NCBI GenBank assembly: GCA_965208775.1
Contig: OZ242360.1
Location: 2,589,404 to 2,653,403 of the forward strand
DNA: 64,000 bases
DNA from: Chloroflexota bacterium
GTDB lineage: Bacteria > Chloroflexota > UBA11872 > VXNJ01
Direction of reading: 5' to 3'
This document shows, in pieces, positions 15,710-49,626 of the stretch (the first letter of the stretch is position 1; the number at the start of each line of letters is the position of its first letter). The translations under genes were made by a program, and so were the position numbers. The notes beneath the pieces were generated by a model. The model ran no database searches, had not been told where the DNA came from, and saw only the letters and a program-made list of their open reading frames with translations.

Positions 15710-16111
15710 AACCCAAATCTAGTCGGCACTTTCCCTCTGACGCCCTGCGAAAGGTCTCGAACGTTGGATTTCTCCCCTAGGCGACATCTAGCAGATATCG
15801 GCGAGCGCAACGAGGGCCAGATCGACATTGACGGAAGCCTGCTCCAGACTTCGCCAACCCAATTCAAATGCAAGCAAGTTCCTTCCATACTTCTCGAAGT
15901 ACTCGAACCTCGTCTTCGCCACCCAGATGTCGTCCGATCAACTCCATGGGGTCGCCCCACAATGCTCGACTTCGCTGCAACAGCCGGCAATTCGTCCTTC
16001 TCCGTAGGTGCCCCAGTGCGCATAATGCAGCCAAGAATCCACTCAACGGGTCGTAGAGGACCCCACACGCCGCTGTTCGGGACGGCCCCGCGACTGAACC
16101 GGACAATCGCT

Positions 16112-17344
16112 TTAGAGCGTTCCCCAGTCGACCCATTTGAGGGCGTCAACGGAGAAGCCTCGATCCCACACGCGGGTCTTTAGCGGATCTAAGAACGGTA
16201 CGTTCTTGAGCGCGAGTGGCCTTGAGTCAGCCAGAGTGATTACTTGAATGGGTACACGCCGGTGCCCCCAACGTGTTGCATCAGTCCGATCCTGATAGTC
16301 GACTAGCAGCCTGCCGAGCGCCTCGTACGCGTGGGTGTCGTAGTAGGGCATAGAGTACCCGATTACGACGATACAGGAGACTTCATTATGTGCCCGATGA
16401 AGATTCTCCCAAAGGTCCAGGATTGGCGCGTTTCCAAGCAGCTTGTCTTGCGCTGGCGGGAGAATGAACGGGACCACAGTTCCGAATCTACTTTCGATGG
16501 GGAAGTGCTCGACGTGATTTGGGACACGACGGACTCGGGACAGGATGTTCTTCCCAAATATCTCTGTAGGTCCCTTCGAGAGCGGCTCCGATGGTACTGA
16601 AGGCGCTGGACCGAAGATCGGATCCTCGTTGGGTACTTGGTCACCTTGCTCTTTGTGCCATGCCATGGACTCGTCAAGGTAGAAGCGGTCGTACCAGTCG
16701 ATCGATCCGTGGAGCTTTATTAGGTCGACGTACTTCGGTCGGAATTGAGCAGGATCGTCTTTGAGCCACCACTGAGGCGTAAGGCTGTAAGGCTTGCCAA
16801 TGTCATCAAGCGCCTGCTCCAAGAGGGAGTCGTAGTTGAATGTGAGCACAACGTCATCGGGACCCAGTTCCTCGGCGAAGTCCCTGAACAATTGCGGTGT
16901 GTCCATGGGAGTTGCCTTGATGAGTATCTCTTGAATCGCCCTTCGCGCGGCGACTATCGATCGGCTGCCATGATTGAAGTACTCTTCAGAACCAATCAGC
17001 CCCAGATAGTGCTTTCGATGACTGTACGCGAGCACCCGCTCAAGGTCGATCGGCCGGCCTGGATACAGCGTGGTCCACTCGGCTATTTCCTCTTCAAGGG
17101 GACCTTCCCAACCGAAGTCGCGGAAGTAACGCCGGAGGTCCTTTCGGACCAGATCAAGAAGCTCTTCGCCTAGTGGTAAGCCAGCTGGGGCCGAGAAGCC
17201 GGCGCCCAGTACAAATAGGCGATAAATGGGCCGGTCCATACTGTGGAGGTTCCCCCGCGCGACGGGCGGCTGTGTTTCGTGGAATTCGCCCGCCAAATGG
17301 TCAGCGAAAATGTTCATTCCCATTCTCATCCATGAAATCTGCAT
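16112..17344 (-). CDS. Standalone SIR2-like (SIR2_2/PF13289-type) protein, putative NAD+-depleting defense effector; true start probably near 17239
   Basis: LFVLGAGFSAPAGLPLG..., VVLTFNYDSLLEQAL, DLIKLHGSIDW and IVVIGYSMPYYD match the defense-associated SIR2-like family signatures (GAGxS ... TxNYD ... KLHGS ... IGYS). No other domain in 410 aa. Confidence 0.6.
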   Translation of the reverse strand: MQISWMRMGMNIFADHLAGEFHETQPPVARGNLHSMDRPIYRLFVLGAGFSAPAGLPLGEELLDLVRKDLRRYFRDFGWEGPLEEEIAEWTTLYPGRPIDLERVLAYSHRKHYLGLIGSEEYFNHGSRSIVAARRAIQEILIKATPMDTPQLFRDFAEELGPDDVVLTFNYDSLLEQALDDIGKPYSLTPQWWLKDDPAQFRPKYVDLIKLHGSIDWYDRFYLDESMAWHKEQGDQVPNEDPIFGPAPSVPSEPLSKGPTEIFGKNILSRVRRVPNHVEHFPIESRFGTVVPFILPPAQDKLLGNAPILDLWENLHRAHNEVSCIVVIGYSMPYYDTHAYEALGRLLVDYQDRTDATRWGHRRVPIQVITLADSRPLALKNVPFLDPLKTRVWDRGFSVDALKWVDWGTL

Positions 17345-17855
17345 GCGCTACTGGAAATGTCTACGGTGCCGTTATCGGCGAGCTCTCGGCATGGGCGTAC
17401 TCGCCGGTTGTGTCCGCATGGGGACTCTACTTGTTTGCGAATGGCTACATGGCTGGGCCATGGAATCTGGCCTCCGCGCGGCCTTGTGCCGCTGGGGTGG
17501 CGAGCAGTGGGCATCGAAAATGCGTGCTCACTGGCGATGGGGGGTCGAACTGCTGTGGGACGGGCGACCGACTGACTGCGTCGATCAGCTTGGAGTAACT
17601 CTATCTTCCAGTCATGACTGCTGCACAAGCTGAGGCAATCGGTCTGGTAGAGCCAAATTGGAGCGACGCTGCGGCCCGCTCAACTCTGGCGAGCCGATCC
17701 CGGCCAGCTCCGTTTCCAAAGTGAGTCGAGGACCGGAGATTCGCAACTTGTCCGGGGGCCAGTTGGGAGTTGGCCGACAGGAAGTCGCTACTCATCCCCC
17801 GATTGGCGTCTATCGCCATTCCCCTCATGTCATGAACAGAAGAGCGGGTGACTAC

Positions 17856-19358
17856 CTACTGGAGGGCCGCTCCAAAGACGTGTAGTGCAACTGCCAACGA
17901 TTCGTCGATCCACTCGTTGAACTGAGTGAGAACTTGATCGTTTCTGTCTCTTTCGGTGAACGTGAACGCTGTATCGCTGCAATCGACAGCCTGCTTATCG
18001 GGCCCCACGGCAGGTTCCTCGTCCCCGTTGTACCACCAAACCTCCCCGAAACAGGTAGCAGCCATTACGCCGGATAGTGGCGCTCCAACATGGTGTAGGG
18101 AGATAACGTAAACCAGACGCAGTTTCTCAAACGAAACATTTGCTTGAACCCAGTACCGAGCTTCGGATCGGTTCGCCCAATGTCCGAGTCGTTTTGCGGT
18201 GTTGACGATTTGGAACCACCAATAGTCCTCTTCGGCGGCACCGGGTCCTGCACTGCGCACCCAGTGAGCGAGTTCCAAGCCTTGCCGCTCAAACTCCCAC
18301 GACACGTCCTCCAACTTCTGTTCGAGGAAGTCGGTCGCATGGTTGTATAGCCAAGATGCGGCGTCGTTGACCTTTCGCAATTCCTCGAACTTCTCCATCT
18401 CCCTAGCTCGATGGCGACTAGCGAGAGCTGAGGCAACCTGATCGATTTTGCTTCGGCTGGGATCAGCCACCGTTACTTCTTCCGTGGCTGCTTTGGCAGT
18501 TTCTGAGACGGCGGTCAGCAGGTCCCGACGTTGCAGTTTCGCGAACAGATTTGTCAGAGTTACGAGGTCACCCGTGTCGGCCTCTTCCAGCGCGGTGATG
18601 TATTCATCGCGGTCCTCTCGATCGACGCGCAGAGGAAAGTAATCACCCTTGATCAAGACCATTGACGCTAAGGCGCGCGCGACGCGTCCGTTGCCATCCT
18701 GAAACGGATGAATGGCTACGAAGGCGTGGTGCAGCCAAGCAGCAGCCGCCGCAGGATGGAACCGAGAATTGAGCGTCCCAAAAATGTCAACGAGCCGCGT
18801 CATCTCGACACCCGTTTGCTCGGGTGGGGCATATTCGTGAACAGTGCCATTCGGCCGAGTCGGATTATTGGGATGCAGCTTGTACTGTCCGTGCTGCAGG
18901 CGCGTACTCACTCGCCCTCCGAATTGGTCGACACCTTCGACGTAGTCTTGGTGACGAGTGATTAGCGCGTGCAACTCCTTTATGAAGCCTTCGGTCAGGT
19001 CACGTGTTCCGCCCACAAAGTCCATCACGAAGTCCAACGACTCCCTTTGATCTCGAATCAGATCAATGGTGTTGGCAGAAACCACGCCTCCAACCCGGTC
19101 GATCGCGTCAGCTGTGATGCCATGAGCGATAATCGTCTCTGTGATGCCTCTGTCCAGCTCGTACAGCCCTTCGATAATCCCGGTCTCGATCGCGATGGAC
19201 CTGTAGAGGCGTTCCGTGAATCGCGAAAGCAGGGCTTCACTAAGTTCCGACTTAACCCCGACCCAGAGATCGCGGACGTGATCCAACCTCTCAAGATCGT
19301 CTGTTACCTGATGCCTGAATTGCTCCGATGGAGGGTCAATGGGTCTCCAGCCAGACAA
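17856..19358 (-). CDS. Fic/Doc-family protein (predicted AMP/NMP-transferase), 500 aa
   Basis: Canonical Fic motif HPFQDGNGRVARAL (HxFx[DE]GNGRxxR) in the middle of the protein. Long N- and C-terminal extensions. Confidence 0.8.
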   Translation of the reverse strand: MSGWRPIDPPSEQFRHQVTDDLERLDHVRDLWVGVKSELSEALLSRFTERLYRSIAIETGIIEGLYELDRGITETIIAHGITADAIDRVGGVVSANTIDLIRDQRESLDFVMDFVGGTRDLTEGFIKELHALITRHQDYVEGVDQFGGRVSTRLQHGQYKLHPNNPTRPNGTVHEYAPPEQTGVEMTRLVDIFGTLNSRFHPAAAAAWLHHAFVAIHPFQDGNGRVARALASMVLIKGDYFPLRVDREDRDEYITALEEADTGDLVTLTNLFAKLQRRDLLTAVSETAKAATEEVTVADPSRSKIDQVASALASRHRAREMEKFEELRKVNDAASWLYNHATDFLEQKLEDVSWEFERQGLELAHWVRSAGPGAAEEDYWWFQIVNTAKRLGHWANRSEARYWVQANVSFEKLRLVYVISLHHVGAPLSGVMAATCFGEVWWYNGDEEPAVGPDKQAVDCSDTAFTFTERDRNDQVLTQFNEWIDESLAVALHVFGAALQ

Positions 19359-19669
19359 AATCCAACTCCATAAGGCTCTTGATCGTTCCCGAACATGTAC
19401 CGTTCGCTATGTTAATCCGAGAATGCCGCGCTAGGTTCAATCAGCGGCAAGTTCTCTCCCAGTTATTTCTGAAACTGGCGGTGCTAGAGATCTTCGTGCC
19501 GAGCAGATGGCACTCAACCAGGATAGAAGTCGCCGCAATCTGCTCGACCCTATGAGTTGATCGTGCTTGCGATCCTCCCCGACTCTACGTCGGGGATACT
19601 TCTTGGAACGACTCCCTGCGAGTCTGGCACTGCACGGACCCGATCTTTGGTTCCGTTGCCAACTGCTGC

Positions 19670-21268
19670 CTAGACGAAGCCTCTGTCCTTGGCCAGTATC
19701 CAGATCAATACCACCGCATCTGCGCACACTCCCGTCAAATGTCTGACCACTTCAAATCCAAGAAATCGAGGTCGATGGCTTACCAGATTGCGAGCAGCCA
19801 CAGCTGCTACTAGTGTGCGGGCGACTGCTTCATCACACTTGACGTCAGATTCGTGCGTGGCCCTGACCAGATTCAAGGCGCGGTAGTCGAGATCACCCTT
19901 CTTGTCAGAAGTCTGGCCTGTGCTCTTCAGTTTCATGAAACAGGTGTGCCACGCGGTATTTTGACCAAGGACCTCGATAAGATCGGAGTAGCTCTTTCCA
20001 TGGTGAGCTACAGGCTCGCTATGGGATGCGTCTTCGATAGGGTCCCGCCGTGCACCCACGATGCCACGTAAGAGTTGCTCTCCGGCTAGCGCCAACGGTC
20101 GGAGTCTCCGATTGTGGAATCCCGGAAATCGATCGCGTCTTTGATCGCTTGTCGTGAAGGAGTAGTGCTGTAGGCTGAACAGAACTTCCAGCAGATCGTG
20201 GTCAAGGCAGAATCCCACGATCTCCTCCGCTACGTCGCCGAGATCGTCGCGACTCGAGATAACCCGAGTTACGGGGTCGCGCCCAAGTACAACATTCAGG
20301 CTCCGTCTCGCCTCGGAGGCCGCAACCTCAACCGGGTCATGCCGTTTGAGTTCGGCGACGAGCCCCCTCCCAACATGGCGGTCGGCAGCGGCGAGGAAAC
20401 TATCCCAGTCGTAGCTGAAGGCTAGACCGGCAAGGTTCTCCGCGTCCCGAAGGTACTCATCCGCATCCTCGGCGAGTGAGATGCGCTCGTTACGACGGTA
20501 TTTGGTGATCAGTCTGATTAGCTCGCCGAGAAAACTGAACAACGCAGGCTCCTCCAAGCCGGACATCGCCAGAGCTCGGCGTGCCCGCTTGGCGCGAACC
20601 GACTTTAGTCTGCTATACGCCGCGTCTGACAGCTCCTGTCCGCTAGAAAGCCCGTTAAACGCGTCGCGATAGGAGGCCTGATCTGCGAACCGAATGAGCT
20701 CCAGCGCATCGAAGCCGATCGCCATACCGCGAAGAGACCGAATTCGCTCAGTGTCTGTGGGGATGTAATGCGAAGTGTCCAAGTGTTGCCAAAACTGCGA
20801 ATGAGTGTAGTAGTAGCGGTTTTGGCGCAACAGTTCGACTGCATGCACTTGCCACGGAGCGTAGTAGCGATCGACTGTAGGCTCCTGAACTATGTTGCCG
20901 TCCGGCATGGTTACGGAGATGCGATGCGTTCCCCAAGGCGCGAATGTTGTGCAGTCCGGTGTTACCAGAAATCGGTTATTGCCACGCTCGAGGTCGAATA
21001 CGTGAAGACCGTCTATGTCCCTTCGCTGTAAACGCTGCCACTGTCCAGGGGGGTCGAGGTCATCGGGGTGATTTACTTCAACGCCAAGGTTGCGCTCGGT
21101 AACGGCAACGGCATGGGCGGTAGGCGCATGTGTTGCAAAAGCGGGCAACAGTAGGCAGTGCCGCTCGTAGAACTCCAGTTCCCTATCAGTAAGGAATCTC
21201 ACATTGAGAGCGTCAGCGTGACACCTGAACTGCCGGGTCTCGAGGAAGCGTCTACCATGCTGGTTCAA
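19670..21268 (-). CDS. Hypothetical 532-aa protein with a C-terminal HEPN-like Rx4H motif (AARNLVSHRP)
   Basis: Coding-like ORF with no similarity I recognise in the N-terminal 450 aa. The C-terminal RN...H motif is in the position typical of HEPN RNase / Abi-type proteins. Motif-level evidence only. Confidence 0.4.
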   Translation of the reverse strand: MNQHGRRFLETRQFRCHADALNVRFLTDRELEFYERHCLLLPAFATHAPTAHAVAVTERNLGVEVNHPDDLDPPGQWQRLQRRDIDGLHVFDLERGNNRFLVTPDCTTFAPWGTHRISVTMPDGNIVQEPTVDRYYAPWQVHAVELLRQNRYYYTHSQFWQHLDTSHYIPTDTERIRSLRGMAIGFDALELIRFADQASYRDAFNGLSSGQELSDAAYSRLKSVRAKRARRALAMSGLEEPALFSFLGELIRLITKYRRNERISLAEDADEYLRDAENLAGLAFSYDWDSFLAAADRHVGRGLVAELKRHDPVEVAASEARRSLNVVLGRDPVTRVISSRDDLGDVAEEIVGFCLDHDLLEVLFSLQHYSFTTSDQRRDRFPGFHNRRLRPLALAGEQLLRGIVGARRDPIEDASHSEPVAHHGKSYSDLIEVLGQNTAWHTCFMKLKSTGQTSDKKGDLDYRALNLVRATHESDVKCDEAVARTLVAAVAARNLVSHRPRFLGFEVVRHLTGVCADAVVLIWILAKDRGFV

Positions 21269-21470: not shown

Positions 21471-24400
21471 AGTCTTTCCCCGTGTGTACGGGGCACTTCA
21501 CGTGTCGGCGATTCACTGGAAATGACCTCGAGGCTGTCCCCGCGTGTGCGGGGACAGCCACAGGTGGCCCATTTGCGCAGGCCGGAATGAGTCTATCCTC
21601 GCGCGTCCGGGGGAACCGTCACGCTGGCGGGATTCGTCCATCTCGGCTGAGGTCTATCCCCGCGCGTACGGGGGAACCACGATCTGCCCCAGCTGCCCGA
21701 TCTTTTGGACGAGTCTATCCCCGCGCGTACGGGGGAACCACCGGCTCGGAGGCCTGGCGAGCACCAAGGACCTGTCTATCCCCGCGCGTACGGGGGAACC
21801 ACCCTCTATCGCGACGGTCACGCGTTTCGCAACGGTCTATCCCCGCGCGTACGGGGGAACCGTCTCGCGAGCGCTCGCGGGCGCGGGCGCGTAAGGTCTA
21901 TCCCCGCGCGTACGGGGGAACCAAAACGGACTTCCAGCAACTGTCTGCCTCAATGGGTCTATCCCCGCGCGTACGGGGGAACCTCCAGATGCACGCGCCG
22001 ATAGTCGCAACGGTGAGGTCTATCCCCGCGCGTACGGGGGAACCTTGAACTTGCCTTCGTCCACAACCGTCCCATAGGGTCTATCCCCGCGCGTACGGGG
22101 GAACCCCGTCAAGGGGGCGGGGAAAGGCAACGACGAAAGGTCTATCCCCGCGCGTACGGGGGAACCCGCAGGTTGCTGCCAACTGCTGCAAGAGCCACAG
22201 GTCTATCCCCGCGCGTACGGGGGAACCACTGTCGAGCCGGGCGAATACTCGGCCGTGTCGGGTCTATCCCCGCGCGTACGGGGGAACCGACACGGCGGGC
22301 CGGTATCCAGCACGACCGAAGGGTCTATCCCCGCGCGTACGGGGGAACCCCGGGATTCCAGCACACACACGCGCTTGACCAGGGTCTATCCCCGCGCGTA
22401 CGGGGGAACCAGGTTCTGGTTGTACAGATGCGCCGAGCTGATCGGTCTATCCCCGCGCGTACGGGGGAACCGAGTACGGCGCCGTCCACATCATGCATGT
22501 CCCCGGTCTATCCCCGCGCGTACGGGGGAACCCCCGATGCCCACGACATGATGATCGGCGATTGGGGTCTATCCCCGCGCGTACGGGGGAACCTATACAC
22601 TACAAGCCCTCGGTCAGCTCCCTCAGGGTCTATCCCCGCGCGTACGGGGGAACCCACAGCCGTTGCATCAAGGCTCTGCCCAAACGCGGTCTATCCCCGC
22701 GCGTACGGGGGAACCAATCCGCCCTTCGCGCGTACCTTCGTTGACGGCGGTCTATCCCCGCGCGTACGGGGGAACCATCTGGTCTGCGGCAACTCATACT
22801 GGCTGAAGGGGTCTATCCCCGCGCGTACGGGGGAACCTCCTTGCTTGGCCGGATCAATCCCTGTATGGCGGGTCTATCCCCGCGCGTACGGGGGAACCCG
22901 ACGGCTGGTGGATGGGACTATTACCGCTGGTGGTCTATCCCCGCGCGTACGGGGGAACCAGCCTCAAAGTCTTTGCCATGCAGGGCAAACGAGGTCTATC
23001 CCCGCGCGTACGGGGGAACCAGTATCCATCGCTTACGAAGGCAAGGAAGGTAAGGTCTATCCCCGCGCGTACGGGGGAACCTTGAACAGGTCCCATGCAA
23101 TGGTCTCGAAGGCGGGTCTATCCCCGCGCGTACGGGGGAACCTGGCGACTCCCGCCGCGCCGCCTGAAACGGTGAGGTCTATCCCCGCGCGTACGGGGGA
23201 ACCGGCAGGCTGCGGCGGAACGGTGCTATTCTGCAGGGTCTATCCCCGCGCGTACGGGGGAACCATTCCAGGATGGTTGGCTCATCGCGCTTGGCTGGGT
23301 CTATCCCCGCGCGTACGGGGGAACCTCCAACTCCCGGCGGCCTATGAAGCCGACGCGGGGTCTATCCCCGCGCGTACGGGGGAACCTCAAGCGGAGCGCG
23401 GGAGGCTGGGCCTTCGGCGGGTCTATCCCCGCGCGTACGGGGGAACCGCCACGTGCGGCGTCTGCGGCGCCTCGGACGGGGGTCTATCCCCGCGCGTACG
23501 GGGGAACCCCGCAGAGAGCTAAAGAGACGATCAGGGAACCGGGTCTATCCCCGCGCGTACGGGGGAACCATGTGGAGATCCAGCAGACCGACGGCACGAC
23601 CGGGTCTATCCCCGCGCGTACGGGGGAACCGAGTCCGAGGTCGTGGCCGCTATGGGCGCCGCGGGTCTATCCCCGCGCGTACGGGGGAACCCGCTTGTAC
23701 GCGCGCTCGGTGTTGGGCAGGTCGGGTCTATCCCCGCGCGTACGGGGGAACCTCCGCCGGGCACCGCCGCCCGATTGATATCTAAGGTCTATCCCCGCGC
23801 GTACGGGGGAACCGCCATTTCGTACCTCCAGGTACTCCGATCCCAAGGTCTATCCCCGCGCGTACGGGGGAACCACGTCGCCATTGGCGCGGAGTGTCAG
23901 CGACCGGGGTCTATCCCCGCGCGTACGGGGGAACCACTGTCTTGCGCCGTTCGGGATCGCCCCATTGGGGTCTATCCCCGCGCGTACGGGGGAACCTCCA
24001 CCACCAGCTCTCCGGCCACTACTCCCTCCGGTCTATCCCCGCGCGTACGGGGGAACCATGTGGAGATCCAGCAGACCGACGGCACGACCGGGTCTATCCC
24101 CGCGCGTACGGGGGAACCGAGTCCGAGGTCGTGGCCGCTATGGGCGCCGCGGGTCTATCCCCGCGCGTACGGGGGAACCCGGCTCAGTCAGCGAGGTAGC
24201 CAATGAGTAGTGGGTCTATCCCCGCGCGTACGGGGGAACCGGTCCCGCGCCGCAACCCTTTGACACGCAGGCCGGTCTATCCCCGCGCGTACGGGGGAAC
24301 CTGGCAACGCCACCATTGACTCCGTCTCTTCTGGGGTCTATCCCCGCGCGTACGGGGGAACCGACCGCAAAAGATCTTCCCGATTAGGGTTTACAGGTCT

Positions 24401-25767
24401 ATCCCCGCGCGTACGGGGGAACCGCGTGCGGGGCCGGCGGGTGCCCGTCCATGGAGGGTCTATCCCCGCGCGTACGGGGGAACCATGCCCCATCGGTAGT
24501 CGCGCTTATCTGTCACCGGTCTATCCCCGCGCGTACGGGGGAACCCGGCGCGGCGCGCAACCGCGAGTGCTGCGCTGAGGTCTATCCCCGCGCGTACGGG
24601 GGAACCCCCGTTGCCGTTGCCGTTGCCGTTGCTGTAGACGGTCTATCCCCGCGCGTACGGGGGAACCTTAAGCGCGTAATCCTCACTGATGAGCGCATCC
24701 GGTCTATCCCCGCGCGTACGGGGGAACCGACGGCCGGCTCGATAGCGGGCGCCGTCTACAAGGTCTATCCCCGCGCGTACGGGGGAACCGTGAGCGTAGG
24801 CTCAACGAGCGAGGCTAGTGAGGGTCTATCCCCGCGCGTACGGGGGAACCACTTCTTCCCGCTGTTCTACGAGCCCACAGAGCGGTCTATCCCCGCGCGT
24901 ACGGGGGAACCATGAGGGTGAGTGGAAACCGCTGAGTGAGTAGGGGTCTATCCCCGCGCGTACGGGGGAACCCCCGCGTGTTCAAGGAGAACGGCCGGGC
25001 GTACGAGGTCTATCCCCGCGCGTACGGGGGAACCTAGCGTCCGTCAACCAGCAGCTCGAGAACGACAGGTCTATCCCCGCGCGTACGGGGGAACCAACCG
25101 GGGGCTTGGCGGTTCTGCTGGCCTAGAAGGTCTATCCCCGCGCGTACGGGGGAACCTTCTACCGCCGGGAGTCCGTCAACGACGGCGAGGGTCTATCCCC
25201 GCGCGTACGGGGGAACCCACCGTTTACCAGGGCTTTGATTGCTTGGGCGAGGTCTATCCCCGCGCGTACGGGGGAACCCCGAACTGCCTGGCACCTGCTC
25301 GGTATGCCTGAGGTCTATCCCCGCGCGTACGGGGGAACCGGATAGATTTGACGCTAGGTGTTATGTTGGTAGGGTCTATCCCCGCGCGTACGGGGGAACC
25401 ATCACCAAAGGCGAAGCTATCAAGCTGCTGCGAGGTCTATCCCCGCGCGTACGGGGGAACCGGAGTGTTGGGAGCGCTTGCACTGATCGCCTACGGTCTA
25501 TCCCCGCGCGTACGGGGGAACCCGCCAACTGGGCATCCAAGCCAAACAGGACCCAGGTCTATCCCCGCGCGTACGGGGGAACCTGCCATTTCGTACCTCC
25601 AGGTACTCCGAATCAAGGTCTATCCCCGCGCGTACGGGGGAACCGCGAGCGAGACCATCGAGGATACGCTGGACAGAGGTCTATCCCCGCGCGTACGGGG
25701 GAACCCTAAGGAAGCGATAGCGGCAGACTCTTTTGTGCGGTCTATCCCCGCGCGTACGGGGGAACCC
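21471..25767 (-). CRISPR. Type I-E CRISPR array: 68 canonical repeats plus 3 degenerate trailer repeats, ~70 spacers of 32-33 nt, transcribed on the minus strand
   Basis: Plus-strand repeat (N)GTCTATCCCCGCGCGTACGGGGGAACC with 61-nt periodicity (first canonical copy at 21651, last at 25740). Its reverse complement GGTTCCCCCGTACGCGCGGGGATAGAC aligns with the E. coli I-E repeat GAGTTCCCCGCGCCAGCGGGGATAAACCG in crRNA sense. Degenerate copies at ~21471, 21532 and 21591 mark the old (trailer) end; cas2 lies at the other end. Confidence 0.97.
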
Positions 25768-25816: not shown

Positions 25817-26104
25817 CTAGTTGTACTTTACTAAGTGCACTCCGTCTGCGTTTACGATTGTCTTCGGTGCCTCGCCCAGCGTCCGTATGCCCTGTCCTCC
25901 GGGGGCCTTGGGATCATGCCATGTCATCACAATCGCGCCCTGCCACAGCTGGTTGTACCAGTCTCTTAACACCCCCCAGATGCGATCCCGGATCCCACTC
26001 GTCATTTGCGGCGATGTGTATACGCCTGGCGCTATCTCCAGCATCGTTGATGCCAGGAAACCGCGGTAACGAGCCTCTACGTTTACAGTGACAACAACGG
26101 TCAT
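25817..26104 (-). CDS. cas2: Cas2 (type I-E)
   Basis: 95 aa, MTVVVTVNVEAR.RGFLA...EIAPGVY aligns with E. coli Cas2 [31 protein letters not shown]. Sits between cas1 and the array. Confidence 0.85.
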   Translation of the reverse strand: MTVVVTVNVEARYRGFLASTMLEIAPGVYTSPQMTSGIRDRIWGVLRDWYNQLWQGAIVMTWHDPKAPGGQGIRTLGEAPKTIVNADGVHLVKYN

Positions 26105-26139
26105 GTCCGCAGTCCTTCTGGATCGCCGGTTAGCACGGC

Positions 26140-27039
26140 TCAGTTCCCGCGCTCGACCGGCTTAACGTCTTCAAACAGCACCTTGATCCGATCGATCATC
26201 TTCGGGATCACGTTCTCAGTCCGGAGCATGTCCCCGGTGGTTCGTCGGGTCAGGCGTTCGATGTTCAAATACGGTTTTTCATCAGCCGTCCGAGCGGCCT
26301 TGAACGCGGCAGGCAGCAGAACCGTGTCTCGGAACAGATCGGCGATGTCGAGGGCAAAGGCGTCGCCACTGTGCTCGTGGATGAAGCCCAGCTGCGGAAT
26401 GGCGCCGACCGCAGTCACCGCGATCACCGCCGCCGAGGTCACTGCCACTGACGCGTGATTGATGGTTTGGTTTGGTATGTCAGCCGCCATCGGGTTGGCT
26501 CGATCATAACGTCGCCCCTGCCATGTGATGCCGTGCCGGCGGGCCAGGTTCTTGTACGTCTGCTTCATGCGAGCGCCCTCGACCCCCCGAAGGGCGTCTA
26601 AGCTCTGATGCGGCAATACCTCGCCTAGCCGCAGCGCATACATCTTGCGGGCGATCGTGATGCGGCTGTCCTCGGAGTCGGCCCAAGCGCGCATTTGCCT
26701 GCGGGCAATCTCGGACGTGTCAGGGAGCAGGGGTGGGGCGGTGTAACAGCGGACGCCATCCTCACCGACCGCCACCAGCGCCGTGCCGTGCCGCGCCATT
26801 AGTCGCAACGCGTCGTGACTCACAGTCGAGCCCGGTCCCAGGAGGATCATCGAGAGTGCTTGAAAAGGGATTCCATACTCGCCGCCTTCGAGTGGGTCCG
26901 TGTCATCACGGTCGGCGCGGCGCTCGAAGCGCAGCGTGCCATCTCGGACCGTCAGCGCCCCCCGACTCAGCCACAGCAGGCCATGACGGTCCGCGTGCGG
27001 GATTCTTGCGGTCTCTAACCCGAGTCTGCCTCTCAGCAT
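26140..27039 (-). CDS. cas1: Cas1 (type I-E)
   Basis: 299 aa; size and position fit, and several blocks (GVTWQGRRYD ~ GVTWNGRRYD; FIHEHSGDAFALDIADLFR ~ FVHTGKPLSFVYDIADIIK) match E. coli Cas1. Confidence 0.9.
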   Translation of the reverse strand: MLRGRLGLETARIPHADRHGLLWLSRGALTVRDGTLRFERRADRDDTDPLEGGEYGIPFQALSMILLGPGSTVSHDALRLMARHGTALVAVGEDGVRCYTAPPLLPDTSEIARRQMRAWADSEDSRITIARKMYALRLGEVLPHQSLDALRGVEGARMKQTYKNLARRHGITWQGRRYDRANPMAADIPNQTINHASVAVTSAAVIAVTAVGAIPQLGFIHEHSGDAFALDIADLFRDTVLLPAAFKAARTADEKPYLNIERLTRRTTGDMLRTENVIPKMIDRIKVLFEDVKPVERGN

Positions 27040-27275
27040 TTCAAATCACCTCCTGCCACCACGGCAGTCCGAACGCCCGCCGCGCGCACTCGCAATCCCC
27101 CGGACTCCAACCCAGCTTCCCCCTGACTGCCGAGCATTCTGTGGTCTCCGGCTCACGCTGCGACGGTAATTCGAAATTATGGATCTATTCAGTTGTTAAG
27201 GTGCGACCACGCTGCCAGAGGGCAGCGTGGTTTGTTCGGAGGCTGGAAAGGGTTCGAAGCCTGCGTCGCGGCCTC

Positions 27276-28010
27276 CTAGGAGGCTGCTGTTGTTTGCCGA
27301 CGGGCCGGACGCAGGAGCAGCATGCCGTATCCGTAGGCCCGGTGCCGTCCAACTCCCCGAGCCAAGAGATCAGCGAACGCCCCCGCATCGGTGACGGTCA
27401 TGGTTCCTTGCATCAGGGCGCGAGGCCCTTCGCTCGCGCGTGCTCCGAGCTTCCTGACCGTACGCACGCGTTGGAAGGACTTGAGCGTCGCCGCCTCCAG
27501 CCGAGCTCCACTCCGTTCCAACCTTTGGCCCAGCCAGTCCGTGTAGACCTCCTCCCGGCTGCGCTCCATGCCTCCCTTCAGATGGCGCTCGGCTTCTACC
27601 TGGAATGCATCACGCTCCTTGCCTGCCATTTGGGATCCCCTCGCGTGCCGGACGATCGGACGGACCAGCACCTCAAACCCCAACCGCCGCCCAGTGTCCC
27701 ATACGCTGGGCATCTCTTTGCTGTCGATCCCTGAAGAAGGCAGTACTTTGGCTTGCAGCGGATCGGCGTAAGCGGCCGCGGCTTGGCGCAAATCGTCCGC
27801 CGTTGCCAGGGAGTAGCCGTACACGACTCCGAGCCGACCGCGGCTATCGCGGGCAATTATCACGCGAAACGGCTTGGGTGCGAGGTCGCCAAAACTCTCC
27901 ACAAACATGCAGTGCATGGCGAACCCCTCATCAAAGGCGCTTCGGCTGATCAGCCCCCTCGAACCCGCCCAGCGATTGAAGGCTCGTACGTCGAGGTCAG
28001 CGCGGATCAT
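27276..28010 (-). CDS. cas6e: Cas6e (CasE); start taken at internal Met (MIRADLDVRAF...)
   Basis: C-terminal GVGRHRAYGYGMLLL resembles the Cas6e glycine-rich loop GIGPAKSMGCGLLSL. Lies between cas5 and cas1. The tracked ORF extends to 28067 but overlaps cas5. Confidence 0.75.
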   Translation of the reverse strand: MIRADLDVRAFNRWAGSRGLISRSAFDEGFAMHCMFVESFGDLAPKPFRVIIARDSRGRLGVVYGYSLATADDLRQAAAAYADPLQAKVLPSSGIDSKEMPSVWDTGRRLGFEVLVRPIVRHARGSQMAGKERDAFQVEAERHLKGGMERSREEVYTDWLGQRLERSGARLEAATLKSFQRVRTVRKLGARASEGPRALMQGTMTVTDAGAFADLLARGVGRHRAYGYGMLLLRPARRQTTAAS

Positions 28011-28063
28011 GTGGAGCGGTTGGGAGTCGGGATCGGATGGACGGACCGGCTGGCTCGCCGCTG

Positions 28064-28825
28064 TCACGACTGCATCTCGGAATGGCGCACGCCGCTTTCT
28101 GCGATGCTCTCGACCGAGACCGTTCCTTCGCAGACAGCCCGTCCGCCTCCATGGAGACCTGATATCCAGTTTCGCTGATCGGTGACCATGTACTTTCTGG
28201 TGGCTTCGATTGTGTTCACTCCCTCACCTTCGGGCCACATGAGCCTGGCAGCACGCTCTGCTTGGCCTGACTGCATCGGCGTGTTGACCAGGGCTGCGAG
28301 CACGGTATCGCCTTTTGCGAAGCCGCCGAATAGCCGGCCGGAGGGCAAGCAGGGCTTTCGTCCTATAGACAACGGTCGCGCGGGAGCCTCCAGCGCCACC
28401 TGGAGATCATCGAGCGTGGGCCCCTCATCTTGCGGTTGTAACCGCAGGGCGACCGTGACGTGCATGTCGGCCCAGTAGTCGCGATAGCGGAGATTGGGCG
28501 CCTCGTAGGTTGCTGCTGCGCCGGCACGCCCCTCGGGCCTTCCCCGGGTGGTCCACCCTCGATCGGCTCCACCGATCTGCGCCGTCTGAAAGTCTTGCAG
28601 CCGCAATCCCCCCGCCGGCTCCCGGTCGATGCGGGCAGCAAACACTAGGCGGTCCTGCAGACGCTGATGTCGCTCGCGCTCGATCCGCCGCCAGCCGAGC
28701 GCATTGGCCAGCAGTCCGGTCAGCATCGACGCCGAGGGGAACCGGCGCACCACGCCATAGTTGTCGATAGTCTCTCCTCCGAAGGCCATCAAGGGAGCCT
28801 CGAGACTCAGGATCAGATGACGCAT
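28064..28825 (-). CDS. cas5: Cas5e (CasD); start at internal Met (MRHLILSLEAPLMAFGG...)
   Basis: The N-terminal M..L.L.L.apL.SFG motif is characteristic of Cas5. The tracked ORF (to 29041) overlaps cas7 by 200 nt; the ATG at 28825 sits 4 nt after the cas7 stop. Confidence 0.8.
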   Translation of the reverse strand: MRHLILSLEAPLMAFGGETIDNYGVVRRFPSASMLTGLLANALGWRRIERERHQRLQDRLVFAARIDREPAGGLRLQDFQTAQIGGADRGWTTRGRPEGRAGAAATYEAPNLRYRDYWADMHVTVALRLQPQDEGPTLDDLQVALEAPARPLSIGRKPCLPSGRLFGGFAKGDTVLAALVNTPMQSGQAERAARLMWPEGEGVNTIEATRKYMVTDQRNWISGLHGGGRAVCEGTVSVESIAESGVRHSEMQS

Positions 28826-28829
28826 TCGC

Positions 28830-30011
28830 TCACGCAACCTCGGCATCCCGTACTGCGTTGGCCGCCCAGCGCGCCAGTCCGTCGAGATCAAGGAGTTCGG
28901 CGCGTGGGACCTCGCAGGGTTCAAGGGACATCGCACGGCGAGACTCGTGTGCCCCGTAGGCGGCGTCGAGCTTGCCGATGTGCTTGACCATGGCTTGGAC
29001 GGCCTGTTCCGTCTGTGGCTCAATAGCCTCCCGGAACGCATTGGCGAGGCTGCGCGGCTGACGCGATCCGGCCTCGATCAGCATCATGTCGGCGTAAGCG
29101 TACGGCGCCGTCGAGCCCAGCTTTGCTCCGGGCGACACTGTAGCTATGAGATGCGTAAGGTACTCGACCACCTTCCCGGCAAGTATGCGGTCGGCGCTCT
29201 CCCACTCGTCGGCAGCACAGCCTTCCAGGTTCGAAACCAATCCAGGTACGTCCACCACCACGTATCCGTAGAACAATCCGGCGGTGAGCTCCATGTCGCC
29301 GATGTGCGCTGCCCCAGGGTCCTCATCGTCGGGCTGCAGGTCGTCCACCACCGAGAAATAATCGCTCTCGCTCTCTTCCGGATGAACCGTAAAGGCGTGC
29401 GCTACATGGACGGCGGCGTCGATGTTAGCGGCGGGATCGGACGTGACCATTCGCCCGAACAACGCGCCGACCAGACCGCCGGGAAGTTTCGTGTTCTCCC
29501 TAAACGCCCTGAAGTTGTGGCGCTGCTCGTTGCTCAGCTTCCTGCTCAGGAGGGTCTGCGCGGCCTCACCCGCGGCCTTAGGGTCATCTGGATGCGCAGC
29601 GCAAATTCTGGCAGCCTGGTCGCGCAGGTATTCGATCTCTGGCAGTCCCAGCAACAACGGCTGGCGAGCCCTTCTGTCGGCGCCTCTTTCTCCATAGACG
29701 CCCTTCTGGAACTCTTCCTCGACAGCCTCCAACACCTCCGGGGAGACGCCGTCGATTTCGCCCAGTGGCCCCATCACGCGCCGCGTGACGATGTCGCGGG
29801 AGCGGATGGCGTGACGGGTTGTATCAATGTTTCGCACCGAGTATTCGTCGTCGGCCATGCGCCAATGCCGCTTCAGGCATTGGGACGAAACGCGCGTCCG
29901 CACGCTTCCGCCGAACGGCATTCGCTTGGCCAGGCCGCTGTCGTCCCGGTTGAGCAACGCCGCCGGATACGAGTGCAGCGTGTGAATCTGCAAAAATCTC
30001 GGAATCGTCAA
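28830..30011 (-). CDS. cas7: Cas7e (CasC / Cse4)
   Basis: 393 aa, N-terminal FLQIHTLHSYPAALLNRDDSGLAKRMPFGG is the conserved Cas7e start. Operon position. Confidence 0.85.
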   Translation of the reverse strand: MTIPRFLQIHTLHSYPAALLNRDDSGLAKRMPFGGSVRTRVSSQCLKRHWRMADDEYSVRNIDTTRHAIRSRDIVTRRVMGPLGEIDGVSPEVLEAVEEEFQKGVYGERGADRRARQPLLLGLPEIEYLRDQAARICAAHPDDPKAAGEAAQTLLSRKLSNEQRHNFRAFRENTKLPGGLVGALFGRMVTSDPAANIDAAVHVAHAFTVHPEESESDYFSVVDDLQPDDEDPGAAHIGDMELTAGLFYGYVVVDVPGLVSNLEGCAADEWESADRILAGKVVEYLTHLIATVSPGAKLGSTAPYAYADMMLIEAGSRQPRSLANAFREAIEPQTEQAVQAMVKHIGKLDAAYGAHESRRAMSLEPCEVPRAELLDLDGLARWAANAVRDAEVA

Positions 30012-30053
30012 TCGAGTACTCCTTCTAACCTCTTCCCAGTTCCCGGTTGAAAC

Positions 30054-30638
30054 TTACGTCTGTGGCCGGTTTGCCCGGCTCTCCGCCCGGTAGTATTCGC
30101 GGGCAATGTTCCGTCGAACTGATTCCGCCCGCTTCTCGTTGTGACCATCGTTCAGGATCAACTGCGTCATCTGGTACCAGTCGAAGCTCTGGCCGGCAGT
30201 CGCCATCATGCGGAACACGCGCACGAGCAAGGTCATCAGCATCGATCCGCGCGCCGTAAGAAGGCGGTTCAAGCGCGACTCGCTGTAGAAGGCGGTCGCT
30301 CGGGCGGAGTCGCCGCCCTCGAACAGCGCTCGTCCGATCGGCATGTGCCTGTCGTGCGCGGACCGCCCGGTAGCGTCCGTTCCCGCGGTGCGGGTCATGA
30401 GTGCGAGGCCGTTCAGGACCAGCGCCCACTTGCGTTCGACGACCGGACTCCCGACCAGTTCTGCCTGCGTCGTGAGCCGCCAGAATGCGGCCGCACTGGG
30501 GGCATCTGGGCCCATCCGGCGGAGTTGGGCAAGGTCGCCAGGCGGAAAGCCTTCCGCTGCCAGATCGTTTGCAAACCCTATGGCAATTTCGCCCCATGAT
30601 CGGGGACGCGTCGACTGCTCAGCCGTTTCGGTCGTCAC
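30054..30638 (-). CDS. casB: Cse2 (CasB), small Cascade subunit
   Basis: 194 aa, alpha-helical, overlaps cse1 by 20 nt; position between cse1 and cas7. Confidence 0.7.
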   Translation of the reverse strand: MTTETAEQSTRPRSWGEIAIGFANDLAAEGFPPGDLAQLRRMGPDAPSAAAFWRLTTQAELVGSPVVERKWALVLNGLALMTRTAGTDATGRSAHDRHMPIGRALFEGGDSARATAFYSESRLNRLLTARGSMLMTLLVRVFRMMATAGQSFDWYQMTQLILNDGHNEKRAESVRRNIAREYYRAESRANRPQT

Positions 30639-32205
30639 TGGTCGTCTCCTGTTCGCCGAATAACCATGGGAATCCGTTGTCGCCGCGTATGCGCCCCTGA
30701 AAAATGCTGTCGGCTCGCACGCGAGCTCGATATCGCCGGTTCACTGGGCATGGCAGCGATTCTTCTGCGTCGCGGAGAATCTGCCGGGCATCGTCTAGCA
30801 CTCCGCGCAGCCACGCGTCACGGACGGTCTGACGCTCCGCCGGATCGTCGACTTCAAACTCTTCCTGAAGGTCTTCGAAGAAGCTGGCGTCAACGATTTC
30901 GTCGAGCTTGTTGGCCCATGGGTTCGCGCGGGTCCGATGCTCGTCACCAATGTTGTCGGTTGCACCGCCGGCTGCAAACGCGGAAACCGCGTGGCGAAGA
31001 ATCCGCTGCGCCTTGCGTATGTGCTCAATACGCTTGCTGGCCACCTCGCCGAGATCTTCAGTTCCGCTTCTGCTACCAATCGTCCTTATCACCTTCGATC
31101 TGACGGGAATTGTGCGCTCGTGATAGCCTTCCGTGCCGCCTTGTCCGCGCACCATTCCGCGGGCGACTAGCTGCATGGCGCTGTCCGTACGCTGCTCTGC
31201 GGCTAGTGGTCTGAGCAGGTATGGTCGCTGCCAATCGGCGGAAGTGAGACCATCAACGACTCTCTCGTACCCCAGTCTTCTCGGCCCAAGAAACGCGGTG
31301 GGCGTTCCTGTGGGGCTGGTTCGAATGCTAGTCGGAGCCCAAGGGTCTCCTGTTAGACCCTTCGCGTCGACAATCCGCTTGGACTTGGAATTCGCGCAAC
31401 CCGCTGTGTAAGCTCCGGCCTCATGTCGAATCCGGACTCGGCGGCAGATTTCGATATAGAAGGGGTCGAGCGCTGAGAGGGGCAGAGCTTCCGCTTTGGC
31501 ACCGTCCCAGAGAAGAGTCCAGACCACACCTATGCCTGAATCAGCCATAGGATAGTCGTCAAGGAGAGACTCTCGACATTCGAGCAGCGCTACGATATCG
31601 CGCCGAATGTGAGCGCCGTTTCGGACAGAGGGTGAGATGCTGAACGCCGGTCGGTTGCCGTAACCGCTGGGCATCCGCGAGATTCCATAGTTATCCCGCC
31701 CAGAATATCCCTCCATTGTTTGGAGTGTGACAATTGCAAAGACCCAGTCTTCGGCGTTTCCGGACCATGCGGTCGACCTCTTGATGTCGTGGTTGTTCGA
31801 AGTCACCAGCATGTCCAGCGCGTCAGGCGTTTCGACCGTGTTCTTGTAGTCGCTGAGCTTGTCGGTCGCTGACGCCGGCGGCTGCATAAACGCCGGTTTG
31901 GTGATGTCCGCGACGACAAGCCTCCAAGGCTCGTCGTCCGGCCAGTCGGGGGTTAGACGGCGGATCAACCGCAGCCAGTCAGCGGCATCATCTGGCGGCT
32001 CATTCACCCCAGCACGCTGCATTGCCATGGCCCCCAATTGCACGAGGAACGCATGCCACGGATGGCGCTGGTGCGGCCGAAGCGCCGGGAAGCTGTCGAC
32101 CTCGTCCCGCATTAGCAATGCAAACGTTTCTGGCAATGACTTCCGAAAGCTGGAAGCGCCGACAGCATTGACGCGTATCAGTTCGTCAGCCAGCAGATTA
32201 TCCAC
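30619..32205 (-). CDS. casA: Cse1 (CasA), large Cascade subunit
   Basis: 528 aa, immediately downstream of cas3 and upstream of cse2; size and order fit Cse1. Confidence 0.8.
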   Translation of the reverse strand: MDNLLADELIRVNAVGASSFRKSLPETFALLMRDEVDSFPALRPHQRHPWHAFLVQLGAMAMQRAGVNEPPDDAADWLRLIRRLTPDWPDDEPWRLVVADITKPAFMQPPASATDKLSDYKNTVETPDALDMLVTSNNHDIKRSTAWSGNAEDWVFAIVTLQTMEGYSGRDNYGISRMPSGYGNRPAFSISPSVRNGAHIRRDIVALLECRESLLDDYPMADSGIGVVWTLLWDGAKAEALPLSALDPFYIEICRRVRIRHEAGAYTAGCANSKSKRIVDAKGLTGDPWAPTSIRTSPTGTPTAFLGPRRLGYERVVDGLTSADWQRPYLLRPLAAEQRTDSAMQLVARGMVRGQGGTEGYHERTIPVRSKVIRTIGSRSGTEDLGEVASKRIEHIRKAQRILRHAVSAFAAGGATDNIGDEHRTRANPWANKLDEIVDASFFEDLQEEFEVDDPAERQTVRDAWLRGVLDDARQILRDAEESLPCPVNRRYRARVRADSIFQGRIRGDNGFPWLFGEQETTSDDRNG

Positions 32206-32231
32206 GGTAGCGCATATCCCTTAAGCCCCGT

Positions 32232-48283: not shown

Positions 48284-48514
48284 ATGACCTCCCTAGGTAA
48301 GGGGTAAAGGAGCGGTACCTATGAACGCTCTGGAGGCCGAATAGATCAAGGCGGACCGGCGTCCCGCGGGAGTGATGCCATAGCAACGACGCCGATCCGT
48401 CCGAAGGGCGGGGCACCCCCCTGGATGCGCGCAGACGTGGAAGAAGGCTGCGCAGCCACCCCGCCGGAACAGATTCTAGACTTGCGAGACCAGGACTCGA
48501 AGAGGCGGGACCTG

Positions 48515-49522: not shown

Positions 49523-49626
49523 GCACTATGTGTGAATAGGAATGAGCCGTTGCAGACGCTCGGAGCACAGCCAAGACGCCGTCAATCACTCAGTGACTCA
49601 CGGAGCGACACTGTTATAATGCAGAT

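Follow-up and report, generated by a model that had tools for sequence, protein, structure and literature searches.

ApeA is a single-protein HEPN anticodon nuclease with the HEPN domain at the C-terminus (10.64898/2026.01.26.701840). DARNA (PD-T7-3) is a single all-helical protein of 456 aa that combines a HEPN RNase, located at the N-terminus (R117x4H122), with a non-catalytic sensing domain (10.64898/2026.02.22.705581). Sofic is a single-gene Fic defence (PMC12249575). The SIR2_2 catalytic core with its Asn/His pair occurs in SIR2-HerA (Nezha), ThsA, DSR1/DSR2 and SIR2-APAZ/pAgo. The sole-Sir2 protein (CRISIS) is a single-protein NADase of ~440 aa with a C-terminal Sir2 domain; its gene is found inside type I-C cas operons and is controlled by a crlRNA, and one homologue gives protection from T2 and T4 (10.1101/2024.12.27.630466). 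Regulation by crRNA-like RNA, sole-Sir2 included, was described for type I-C systems in the same report.

Layout of the locus

In this study, a locus of three genes beside a CRISPR array was compared with these systems. The window, which is the whole stretch of DNA that was analysed, covers 64,000 nucleotides of a Chloroflexota bacterium (contig OZ242360.1). The three open reading frames were found on the minus strand, consecutive and co-oriented as predicted: a 532-aa protein with a TTG start (19670-21268), a 500-aa Fic protein (17856-19358) and a 410-aa SIR2 protein (16112-17344), the last being open up to 17344. Every motif cited in the original prediction was present in the translations. 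The TTG start of the 532-aa gene was confirmed by a conserved N-terminus, MNxHGxRF...ELEFYE.

The CRISPR array (21471..25767, minus strand) has 71 repeats of 29 nt with 32-nt spacers. Its repeats are type I-E-like, and its direction is minus-strand transcription from 25767 to 21471. The trailer end (21471-21618) is degenerate, with 4, 9 and 9 mismatches in the last three repeats, and the three genes sit downstream of it on the same strand. A type I-E-like cas operon (25817..34778, minus strand) runs from cas3 to cas2; Cas3 has HD and helicase domains, and the other cas genes are putative assignments from ORF order and repeat type. Defence genes in the window include McrBC, Mrr and Cas3, and its island carries an integrase and a serine recombinase. 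The predicted position beside the trailer is true in the window, but it is not kept in any homologue.

Translation of the SIR2 gene almost certainly begins at M36 (17239), which gives a predicted protein of ~375 aa (16112..17239), because homologues are ~384 aa long and DNA homology to L024 and L026, two loci at 70-73% identity, ends at 17221 and 17238. With the start moved, the gap between the Fic and SIR2 genes is ~616 nt. The gap between the 532-aa and Fic genes is 311 nt.

Gaps between the genes

The gaps were searched for promoters, terminators and small genes. Promoter and terminator scans, as had been proposed, detected nothing beyond shuffle expectation. A stable hairpin was found 3' of the 532-aa gene. 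This GC-rich 8-bp hairpin (19576..19596, minus strand) lies 74 nt past the stop codon and has a folding energy of -18.4 kcal/mol (z = -4.0). A hairpin with a different stem sequence occupies the same place in L028. The terminator scan listed the 19576..19596 hairpin on the plus strand only, and it is likely a terminator without a U-tract. Since the scans stayed at shuffle level, the trio may be co-transcribed by read-through in this genome.

An Rfam search of the gaps gave no match. Two gap ORFs, 17326-17628 (100 aa) and 19437-19727 (96 aa), were conserved at the DNA level only and not in frame. A non-coding leader 5' of the SIR2 gene (17240..17655, minus strand) was common only to the nearest relative (L029/L030), with 72% identity and indels, and tblastx favoured no frame.

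The 532-aa protein

The 532-aa protein belongs to an unannotated family of ~540 aa with 81 close clusters. At E<=1e-3, 269 representatives (clusters at 50% identity) were collected from several phyla, and nearly all are full length. From its N-terminus, the protein consists of an alpha/beta domain (~residues 1-150), a helical middle part and, at the C-terminus, a further helical domain; its AF2 model has a pLDDT of 86.6. In the N-terminal domain, P42, Y136 and Q140 are invariant in the family, and ELEFYE and W112 are nearly invariant. E397 is also invariant. No match to the protein was found in Pfam, PADLOC, NCBIfam or PDB, and a search of IMG/VR for a phage origin found no member of the family. 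The homologues are solo genes, often with restriction genes alongside. Their next-door genes are mostly Eco57I, Mrr, type I R-M, McrBC, MADS components, recombinases and transposases.

The original prediction had proposed a C-terminal HEPN-like motif. The candidate catalytic motif, RNLVSH (R493-N494-L-V-S-H498; 19775..19792, minus strand), has strictly invariant R493, N494 and H498 in 45/45 diverse members, down to 15% identity, and agrees with the HEPN pattern of a conserved R-x4-6-H with a polar N/D/H after the Arg. In the AF2 model, it closes the penultimate helix (478-498) at its C-terminal end, with the last helix (505-528) after it. A bare R-x4-6-H is not evidence by itself, because it occurs seven times in the 532-aa protein, three times in the Fic protein and four times in the SIR2 protein; of the seven, only that at 493-498 is conserved and the other six are not.

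The HEPN assignment found no HMM or fold support. The Pfam, PADLOC and NCBIfam scans took in the window protein, 28 close members, 45 diverse members and 21 C-terminal domains. The HEPN profiles did not match the window protein, nor did they match the 21 C-terminal domains scanned alone. One weak Ribonuc_2-5A match (E = 0.012) was obtained among the 45 members. Searches of PDB with the family by phmmer and hmmsearch gave no match, and the best HEPN entries in Foldseek with the model, 4nqf and 7ae6, had E about 1 and TM 0.22-0.24.

Compared with ApeA, the 532-aa protein is likewise a single, mainly helical protein in the range of ~530-580 aa, with an N-terminal region without known homology. 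The R...H motif of the 532-aa protein would, as in ApeA, be on the penultimate core helix of the C-terminal domain, and in both cases the gene stands alone in defence islands. However, the 532-aa protein has no PADLOC match at E<=1, the 45 members give two weak unrelated models only, and no fold match was found. It stops 34 residues past the motif, while ApeA carries further insertions. DARNA is similar in being one helical protein with catalytic and sensing parts, but its HEPN domain is at the opposite end, its chain is shorter and it has no sequence match to the 532-aa protein.

The family may reasonably be regarded as a candidate for a HEPN-like effector of a new kind that acts as a single protein. 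A more specific reading, to which we give somewhat less than even credence, is that its members are widespread single-protein immune effectors analogous to ApeA and DARNA, in which a new N-terminal alpha/beta sensor would control a highly diverged C-terminal HEPN-like RNase (E397, R493, N494, H498); current HMM libraries and Foldseek would miss them. In the likely function of the 532-aa protein, sensor and effector would be joined in one chain. R493, N494 and H498, probably with E397, would form a HEPN-type metal-independent RNase site in the C-terminal helical domain. The analogy of ApeA and DARNA suggests that such a site may cleave tRNA or mRNA and arrest translation once the N-terminal and middle domains have sensed an infection cue.

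The Fic protein

The predicted Fic domain with an intact active site was borne out. Pfam Fic matched the 500-aa protein with 66.9 bits (cutoff 24, 3e-18), and the active-site loop is the canonical HPFQDGNGRVAR (H217 to R228, residues 217-228; 18675..18710, minus strand), which is invariant in 21 family members except for F219 and A227. The segment T59-G-I-I-E63-G64 (19167..19184, minus strand) fits (S/T)xxxE(G/N), the auto-inhibitory helix motif of Fic proteins (PMC3667792). E58, T59, G60, I61 and E63 are invariant in the family. Since the TxxxEG inhibitory motif is N-terminal in the same chain, the protein is classified by sequence as a class II Fic. The best PDB matches were 3cuc (1.4e-23) and FICD (7e-14).

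SoFic (PMC12249575) and FICD share the class II arrangement, the N-terminal TxxxEG inhibitory helix and the canonical active site with the window Fic, and PADLOC matched its SoFic model at 1.6e-18 and PDC-S04 at 2.6e-19. However, the SoFic family NCBIfam NF046030 scored 28.2 bits (cutoff 550), and the match covers the core loop only; thus, the window Fic is not a SoFic orthologue. It is also 140 aa longer than SoFic and has a different conserved C-terminal domain. The family is full-length, with invariant residues in this ~200-aa domain, which would be a likely regulator or sensor. A small conserved AS1-like gene or antitoxin was looked for downstream of the Fic gene and was not found. The protein may act as a self-inhibited class II AMP-transferase that modifies a host or phage target after displacement of the Glu63 helix.

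The SIR2 protein

The SIR2-like assignment was supported by Pfam SIR2_2 (PF13289), which scored 36.2 bits (cutoff 24.5, 7.6e-9). The motifs are GAGFS (47-51), TFNYD (168-172), KLHGS (210-214) and IGYS (328-331). The catalytic N170/H212 pair and D172 are invariant in the family, and G47, A48, G49 and F50 are nearly invariant. The features of a SIR2_2 defence-type NADase, namely PF13289, a Rossmann GxG and the Asn and His residues, were all present. The protein would be a standalone NAD+ hydrolase that depletes NAD+ on activation.

The family has >120 and up to >600 clusters at 62-79% identity. Such high conservation is unusual in a defence gene. The homologue is a solo gene in six different contexts, where its neighbours are type IIG and type I R-M genes, transposases, an ICE and TA genes. 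IMG/VR gave a single weak match to the family.

As predicted, no HerA, TIR (ThsB) or Argonaute partner was found in the window or in the six homologue contexts. Nearly the whole chain is SIR2 core, and it has no SLOG, APAZ or long C-terminal sensor domain. The catalytic core is shared with the multi-part systems, but in SIR2-HerA, Thoeris and SPARSA there is an adjacent partner or a fused SLOG/APAZ domain. PADLOC matches were weak: Aga_SIR2 at 1e-9, SIR2 at 1.4e-7, ThsA at 0.006 and Dsr2 at 0.06. The best PDB match was 8w9l, a 381-aa SIR2-like protein (E = 1.2e-3).

The statement that a standalone SIR2 protein has no close described counterpart is out of date, as the sole-Sir2 NADase has been described (10.1101/2024.12.27.630466). 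Both are standalone Sir2-like proteins that lie beside CRISPR-Cas and have no partner gene. Compared by description only, they differ in that the window protein is ~375 aa, its Sir2 motifs begin 12 residues past the start, and no crlRNA target was found for it.

Defence role or other cargo

Alternatively, one or more of the trio might have no defence role and be cargo of a mobile element, such as a regulatory AMPylase/deAMPylase, a protein deacylase or ADP-ribosyltransferase, or an element-maintenance toxin. In L027, the Fic orthologue is surrounded by housekeeping genes (rplT, pheST), and its family is thus not necessarily one of defence genes. SoFic is reported both to AMPylate and deAMPylate EF-Tu (10.64898/2026.07.09.737422). 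The strong conservation of the SIR2 family also fits cargo, as does the fact that all three genes travel with integrases or transposases. However, the neighbourhoods consist mostly of restriction and other defence genes. SIR2_2, unlike the classical sirtuins, is a defence-type NADase family, and PADLOC SIR2 models were matched. Cargo without a defence role is considered improbable.

Relation to the CRISPR array

A CRISIS-like arrangement was considered, in which a degenerate repeat-spacer unit of the trailer produces a crRNA-like RNA and Cascade represses the promoter of one or more toxic genes next to it. The trio follows immediately 3' of the trailer, whose last three repeats are degenerate, and shares its strand; type I-C systems offer a precedent that includes sole-Sir2 (10.1101/2024.12.27.630466). 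The spacer between degenerate repeats 70 and 71 (21530-21500) agrees in 13 of the first 16 nt with a site at ~17335-17365, upstream of the SIR2 start. However, this match is at chance level, as 8/20 shuffled spacer sets reach 13-14/16 there. Its mismatches at spacer positions 3, 4 and 6 fall in the seed. AAG is the PAM reported for type I-E systems, but the flanking trinucleotide is CAC. The matched site is not conserved in L029, and the upstream region of the 532-aa gene has no spacer match better than shuffles.

When the 71 spacers and pseudo-spacers were compared with four intergenic regions and shuffled controls, nothing rose above chance. No CRISPR array or cas genes were found near homologues of any trio gene. 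Control of the trio by crlRNA was rejected because spacer matches were at shuffle level, and such an arrangement is judged very unlikely. The SIR2 gene is a single gene like sole-Sir2, but it does not show the CRISIS arrangement: no spacer or pseudo-spacer target exceeded shuffles, and the domain order differs.

Probable independence of the three genes

For the 532-aa family, flanks of 8-10 kb were covered at 22 loci in genomes and 12 in metagenomes. In the 22 genome loci (+/-10 kb), tblastn of the Fic and SIR2 proteins gave no match, and ORF clustering found no conserved neighbour of the 532-aa gene. The 12 metagenome loci, from a distant clade of the family, contained neither Fic nor SIR2 and no conserved neighbour. 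Each gene had unrelated neighbours in its closest relatives, at 72-85% identity: P0003 for the 532-aa protein (72%, L028), P0083 for SIR2 (79%, L029/30), and P0203 and P0204 for Fic (84-85%, L031, L032 and L027). DNA homology to the relatives stopped at the gene borders, covering 19542-21267 for the 532-aa gene, 17854-19417 for Fic and 16034-17655 for SIR2. L031, a related island that bears a recombinase, has an integrase, a serine recombinase, a 1340-aa protein and Fic in common with the window, but in L031 the Fic gene is placed elsewhere, between the recombinase and the 1350-aa protein.

The different neighbours, the breaks at gene borders, the gaps of 311 and ~616 nt and the stable hairpin behind the 532-aa gene agree with one of the two readings first offered, that of independent single-gene defence or toxin genes. 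Very probably, each gene of the trio is a unit of its own, transcribed and mobilised separately, and the three have gathered in a large defence island; the element that holds it bears an integrase and a recombinase, and the island also has McrBC, Mrr and type I-E CRISPR-Cas. The other reading offered, in which sensor, modifier and NADase would work together as a three-gene defence system not yet described, is hardly credible: the genes are adjacent and co-oriented, each with an effector-type domain, but it is refuted by the orthologues, which never co-localise in 34 loci of the 532-aa family, six SIR2 contexts and four Fic contexts, even at 72-85% identity, and the gaps are long and the homology breaks at gene borders.

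Implications

The independent single-gene units are horizontally shuffled, and as a trio they represent ordinary defence-island stacking. The lesson of this locus is that a position next to a CRISPR trailer is weak evidence, as is an R-x4-6-H match by itself. The very large, tightly conserved family of partner-less ~380-aa SIR2 proteins extends the sole-Sir2 idea, and raises the question of how a NADase with neither sensor domain nor partner stays off. The 532-aa family, with its invariant RNxxxH and neighbourhoods rich in restriction genes, can be put forward as a concrete candidate for screens of defence activity.

Gene Arrangement and Start Sites

The SIR2-like, Fic and 532-aa genes were found at 16112–17344, 17856–19358 and 19670–21268 on the minus strand, exactly where the original prediction had placed them, as open frames of 410, 500 and 532 aa. 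Every motif cited for the three proteins was present. Upstream on the same strand, from 25767 to 21471, is a CRISPR array in which a 29-nt repeat occurs 71 times, preceded by predicted cas genes from cas2 through cas3 (25817–34778), with Cas3 domains detected. The last three repeats of the array had 4, 9 and 9 mismatches; the trio therefore follows the trailer, and the claimed position beside it was correct, with the degenerate array end (21471) preceding the 532-aa gene.

The TTG start of the 532-aa gene was right, and the N-terminus MNxHGxRF...ELEFYE was kept among homologues; the sole exact-match record in the protein collection was a truncated call of 412 aa. The TTG start of the Fic gene was also right, with W4 invariant in the family, and its sole exact-match record was 476 aa long. 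The true start of the SIR2 gene is most likely the inner codon M36 (window position 17239), because homologues are about 384 aa long and the DNA similarity to loci of 70–73% identity ends at 17221 and 17238.

Independence of the Three Genes

The trio had been read as either an undescribed multi-gene system or a stack of independent single-gene units. The first reading was refuted by the absence of co-localization. By tblastn, the Fic and SIR2 proteins had no match in any of 22 loci of the 532-aa family, taken with 10-kb flanks from GTDB species genomes (Acidimicrobiia, Dehalococcoidia and Tepidiformaceae MAGs). All-against-all clustering of the flanking ORFs of these loci showed that, apart from the anchor, none was common to more than a few. 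The 12 metagenome loci of a distant 532-aa clade likewise had neither Fic, SIR2 nor a conserved neighbor. The nearest available relatives of each gene also had unrelated neighbors: P0003 for the 532-aa protein (72% identity; locus L028), P0083 for SIR2 (79%; L029/L030), and P0203 and P0204 for Fic (84–85%; L031, L032 and L027).

The second reading was supported by nucleotide homology to the nearest relatives, which was limited to each gene with short flanks (19542–21267, 17854–19417 and 16034–17655). The gaps within the trio were 311 nt and about 616 nt. Consensus scans for promoters and terminators were uninformative; the gaps contained no Rfam family, and none of their ORFs kept its frame among relatives. 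The stop codon of the 532-aa gene is followed by a stable hairpin (−18.4 kcal/mol, z = −4.0). A hairpin with a different stem sequence occupies the equivalent place in L028. The trio is an ordinary defense-island stack.

The leader of about 400 nt 5′ of the SIR2 gene (17240–17655) had 72% identity, with indels, to that of the nearest relative, and no coding signal was detected in this comparison. It may act as a long 5′ UTR or a regulatory element.

Relation to the CRISPR Array

According to a recent preprint, promoters of toxic immune genes, sole-Sir2 among them, are repressed by crRNA-like RNAs encoded beside type I-C cas genes (10.1101/2024.12.27.630466). Such control was considered for the trio. 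All spacers, those flanked by the degenerate repeats of the trailer, and a 32-nt stretch past the last repeat were slid along four intergenic regions on both strands, with shuffled spacers as the control. The best spacer matches covered 11–13 of the first 16 nt, which was the shuffle level. One case was suggestive: the spacer bounded by degenerate repeats 70 and 71 (21500–21530) matched about 17335–17365, 5′ of the SIR2 start, at 13 of the first 16 nt (10 contiguous). This match had seed mismatches and a non-canonical CAC flank, was equaled or exceeded in 8 of 20 shuffled sets, and its target site was not conserved in L029. Control by crRNA-like RNAs was rejected, since the matches were at chance level. 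No CRISPR array or cas homologue was found in the 47 fetched loci. From these two results, the CRISPR adjacency looks like island clustering.

Within the array, spacers 27 and 35 (24120–24151 and 23632–23663) were identical, CGCGGCGCCCATAGCGGCCACGACCTCGGACT. Tandem Repeats Finder gave periodicities of 122 and 183 nt around 23540–24300, which indicates that spacer-repeat blocks were duplicated internally.

The Surrounding Island

The window and L031, a fetched locus from the same metagenome of origin as L029/L030, have four elements in common at 74–82% nucleotide identity: a tyrosine integrase-like gene (48436–49532, minus), a large serine recombinase of 535 aa (46652–48267, minus), a 1340-aa MqsA/HTH-headed protein (41742–45751 within 41733–45755, minus; 11840–15892 in L031) and Fic. 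The integrase and recombinase are also shared with L032. The Fic gene of L031 is placed between the recombinase and the 1350-aa protein of that locus, whereas that of the window is 22 kb off, past the cas operon and the array. This difference in placement shows that the island was rearranged gene by gene. The recombinase and integrase (46676–49522, minus) probably mark one end of an integrative island with the CRISPR-Cas locus and the defense genes.

In the 1340-aa protein, only the N-terminal 60 aa or so were recognizable, as an MqsA-antitoxin/HTH domain, leaving some 1280 residues; its L031 counterpart, at 76.6% nucleotide identity, is directly 3′ of the Fic gene. A GmrSD_C-like segment (9476–10222) was 78% identical to 8373–9104 of L029, in a gene that adjoins SIR2 in L029/L030. 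About 6 kb, with the RCC1/GSDH gene included, lies between their counterparts in the window, which suggests an insertion. The 714-aa protein at 13565–15709 (plus), encoded between defense genes, is an unusual fusion in which a hydrophobic stretch at the N-terminus is combined with RCC1 repeats and a beta-propeller of the glucose/sorbosone-dehydrogenase type.

In a McrBC-type restriction pair (4147–7750, minus), the McrC-like protein has 490 aa and the McrB-like AAA_5 protein 807 aa; the McrB part has a homologue, at 69% nucleotide identity, that adjoins a 532-aa family member in L001. Just past cas3, a gene at 36264–37238 (plus) encodes a restriction endonuclease with HARE-HTH and Mrr_cat domains, and elsewhere Mrr_cat genes rank with the most frequent neighbors of the 532-aa family. 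The ORFs at 8411–9412 (minus), 10389–11828 (plus) and 38171–39820 (minus), of 333, 479 and 549 aa, lie inside the island and matched nothing in Pfam at E ≤ 1e-5; high GC content may have produced some of them as spurious frames.

The 532-aa Protein Family

The 532-aa protein had no match in Pfam, PADLOC, NCBIfam or PDB sequences. It belongs to a real, coherent family of 81 close clusters, with 269 representatives at E ≤ 1e-3 in a library of 1.84 billion proteins, almost all of 500–590 aa and aligned end to end. In an alignment of 45 members, with identities as low as 15%, the invariant columns numbered only eight: P42, Y136, Q140, E397, R493, N494, H498 and W523.

The bare R-x4-6-H motif is by itself no evidence, with 7, 3 and 4 matches in the 532-aa, Fic and SIR2 proteins, respectively. 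The match at 493–498 was the sole conserved one in the 532-aa protein, and R-N-x3-H was present in 45 of 45 members. The AF2 model (pLDDT 86.6) starts with an alpha/beta domain at the N-terminus and is helical both in its middle part and in its C-terminal domain, where RNLVSH is at the end of the penultimate helix (478–498), followed by one final helix. The catalytic residues of ApeA and other HEPN domains are reported to occupy this position, in helix H3 (10.64898/2026.01.26.701840). HEPN profiles did not support the assignment; the sole hint among the 45 members was one weak match, to Ribonuc_2-5A at 0.012. Neither the whole model nor the C-terminal one had a significant Foldseek match in the PDB or among viral structures, and 4nqf and 7ae6, both HEPN entries, appeared only at E of about 1 and TM of 0.22–0.24. 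The HEPN-like motif of the original prediction thus stood as a conserved feature, and the profile and fold support did not follow. HEPN membership is unproven, the predicted motif and modeled topology being consistent with it.

The genomic context of the family is defense-like. Among the two nearest ORFs per side at 20 loci, the commonest Pfam families were Eco57I, Mrr_cat, N6_Mtase, ResIII, Methylase_S, McrBC, EcoEI_R_C, HsdM_N, resolvases and transposases, and PADLOC found type I and type IIG R-M and MADS components around the homologues. One Acidimicrobiales genome (OZ220743.1) had two full copies (L004 and L006). Several loci looked decayed: L015, L019 and L020 matched in separate pieces, and the internally deleted copy in L021 kept only residues 1–38 and 497–532. 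Double and decayed copies are a common mark of genes that are costly and dispensable. IMG/VR contained no member of the family.

The Fic and SIR2 Proteins

The claim of a Fic protein with an intact active site held: Pfam Fic matched at 66.9 bits (cutoff 24), and the loop H217-PFQDGNGRVA-R228 was invariant in the family. Also invariant was the N-terminal E58-T-G-I-x-E63-G, which fits the (S/T)xxxE(G/N) inhibitory helix. These features place the protein in class II, that of self-inhibited Fic proteins, as the classes are defined in PMC3667792. The last 200 residues or so are conserved (N396, E399, R414, S420, H422 and others), and no match was found for them. The protein is not an orthologue of SoFic (NCBIfam model, 28 bits; cutoff 550), although its core was matched by the SoFic and PDC-S04 models of PADLOC. 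The nearest solved structures were 3cuc and FICD. Contexts of the orthologues vary; two adjoin an integrase and recombinase, whereas a third has rplT and pheST around it.

The SIR2-like assignment was confirmed by Pfam SIR2_2 at 36.2 bits (cutoff 24.5). The family, with more than 600 clusters, is unusually well conserved (62–79% identity). Its members are about 380 aa, essentially a bare SIR2_2 core with a conserved Rossmann GAGF motif, N170, D172 and H212. The gene was solo in six independent contexts: the window, an ICE with a type IV secretion system and Eco57I-like enzyme, a transposase/MmeI/AAA_13 region, a GmrSD/HicB region, a reverse-transcriptase/IS/type I R-M region and a recombinase/transposase region. 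No HerA, TIR or Argonaute gene adjoined it in any of the six, consistent with the partner-less state that had been claimed. The nearest solved structure, 8w9l, a 381-aa SIR2-like protein, was a weak match. The standalone SIR2, for which no close described counterpart had been recognized, has a precedent: sole-Sir2 is likewise a partner-less Sir2 effector, but its domain order differs.

Proposed Functions

Most plausibly, each gene product would be sensor and effector in one and would halt growth upon infection. The 532-aa protein would cleave RNA through its HEPN-like site, as the analogy to ApeA and DARNA suggests; the Fic protein would AMPylate a target once the Glu63 helix is released; and the SIR2 protein would deplete NAD+. 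These three activities are inferred; what the analysis shows is domain identity and catalytic-residue conservation. The Fic and SIR2 genes belong to kinds already known, and the 532-aa family is the only part of the trio that current libraries do not recognize. If the RNxxxH site of this unannotated family is that of a HEPN RNase, the family would add a new form to the HEPN effectors that act as single proteins.
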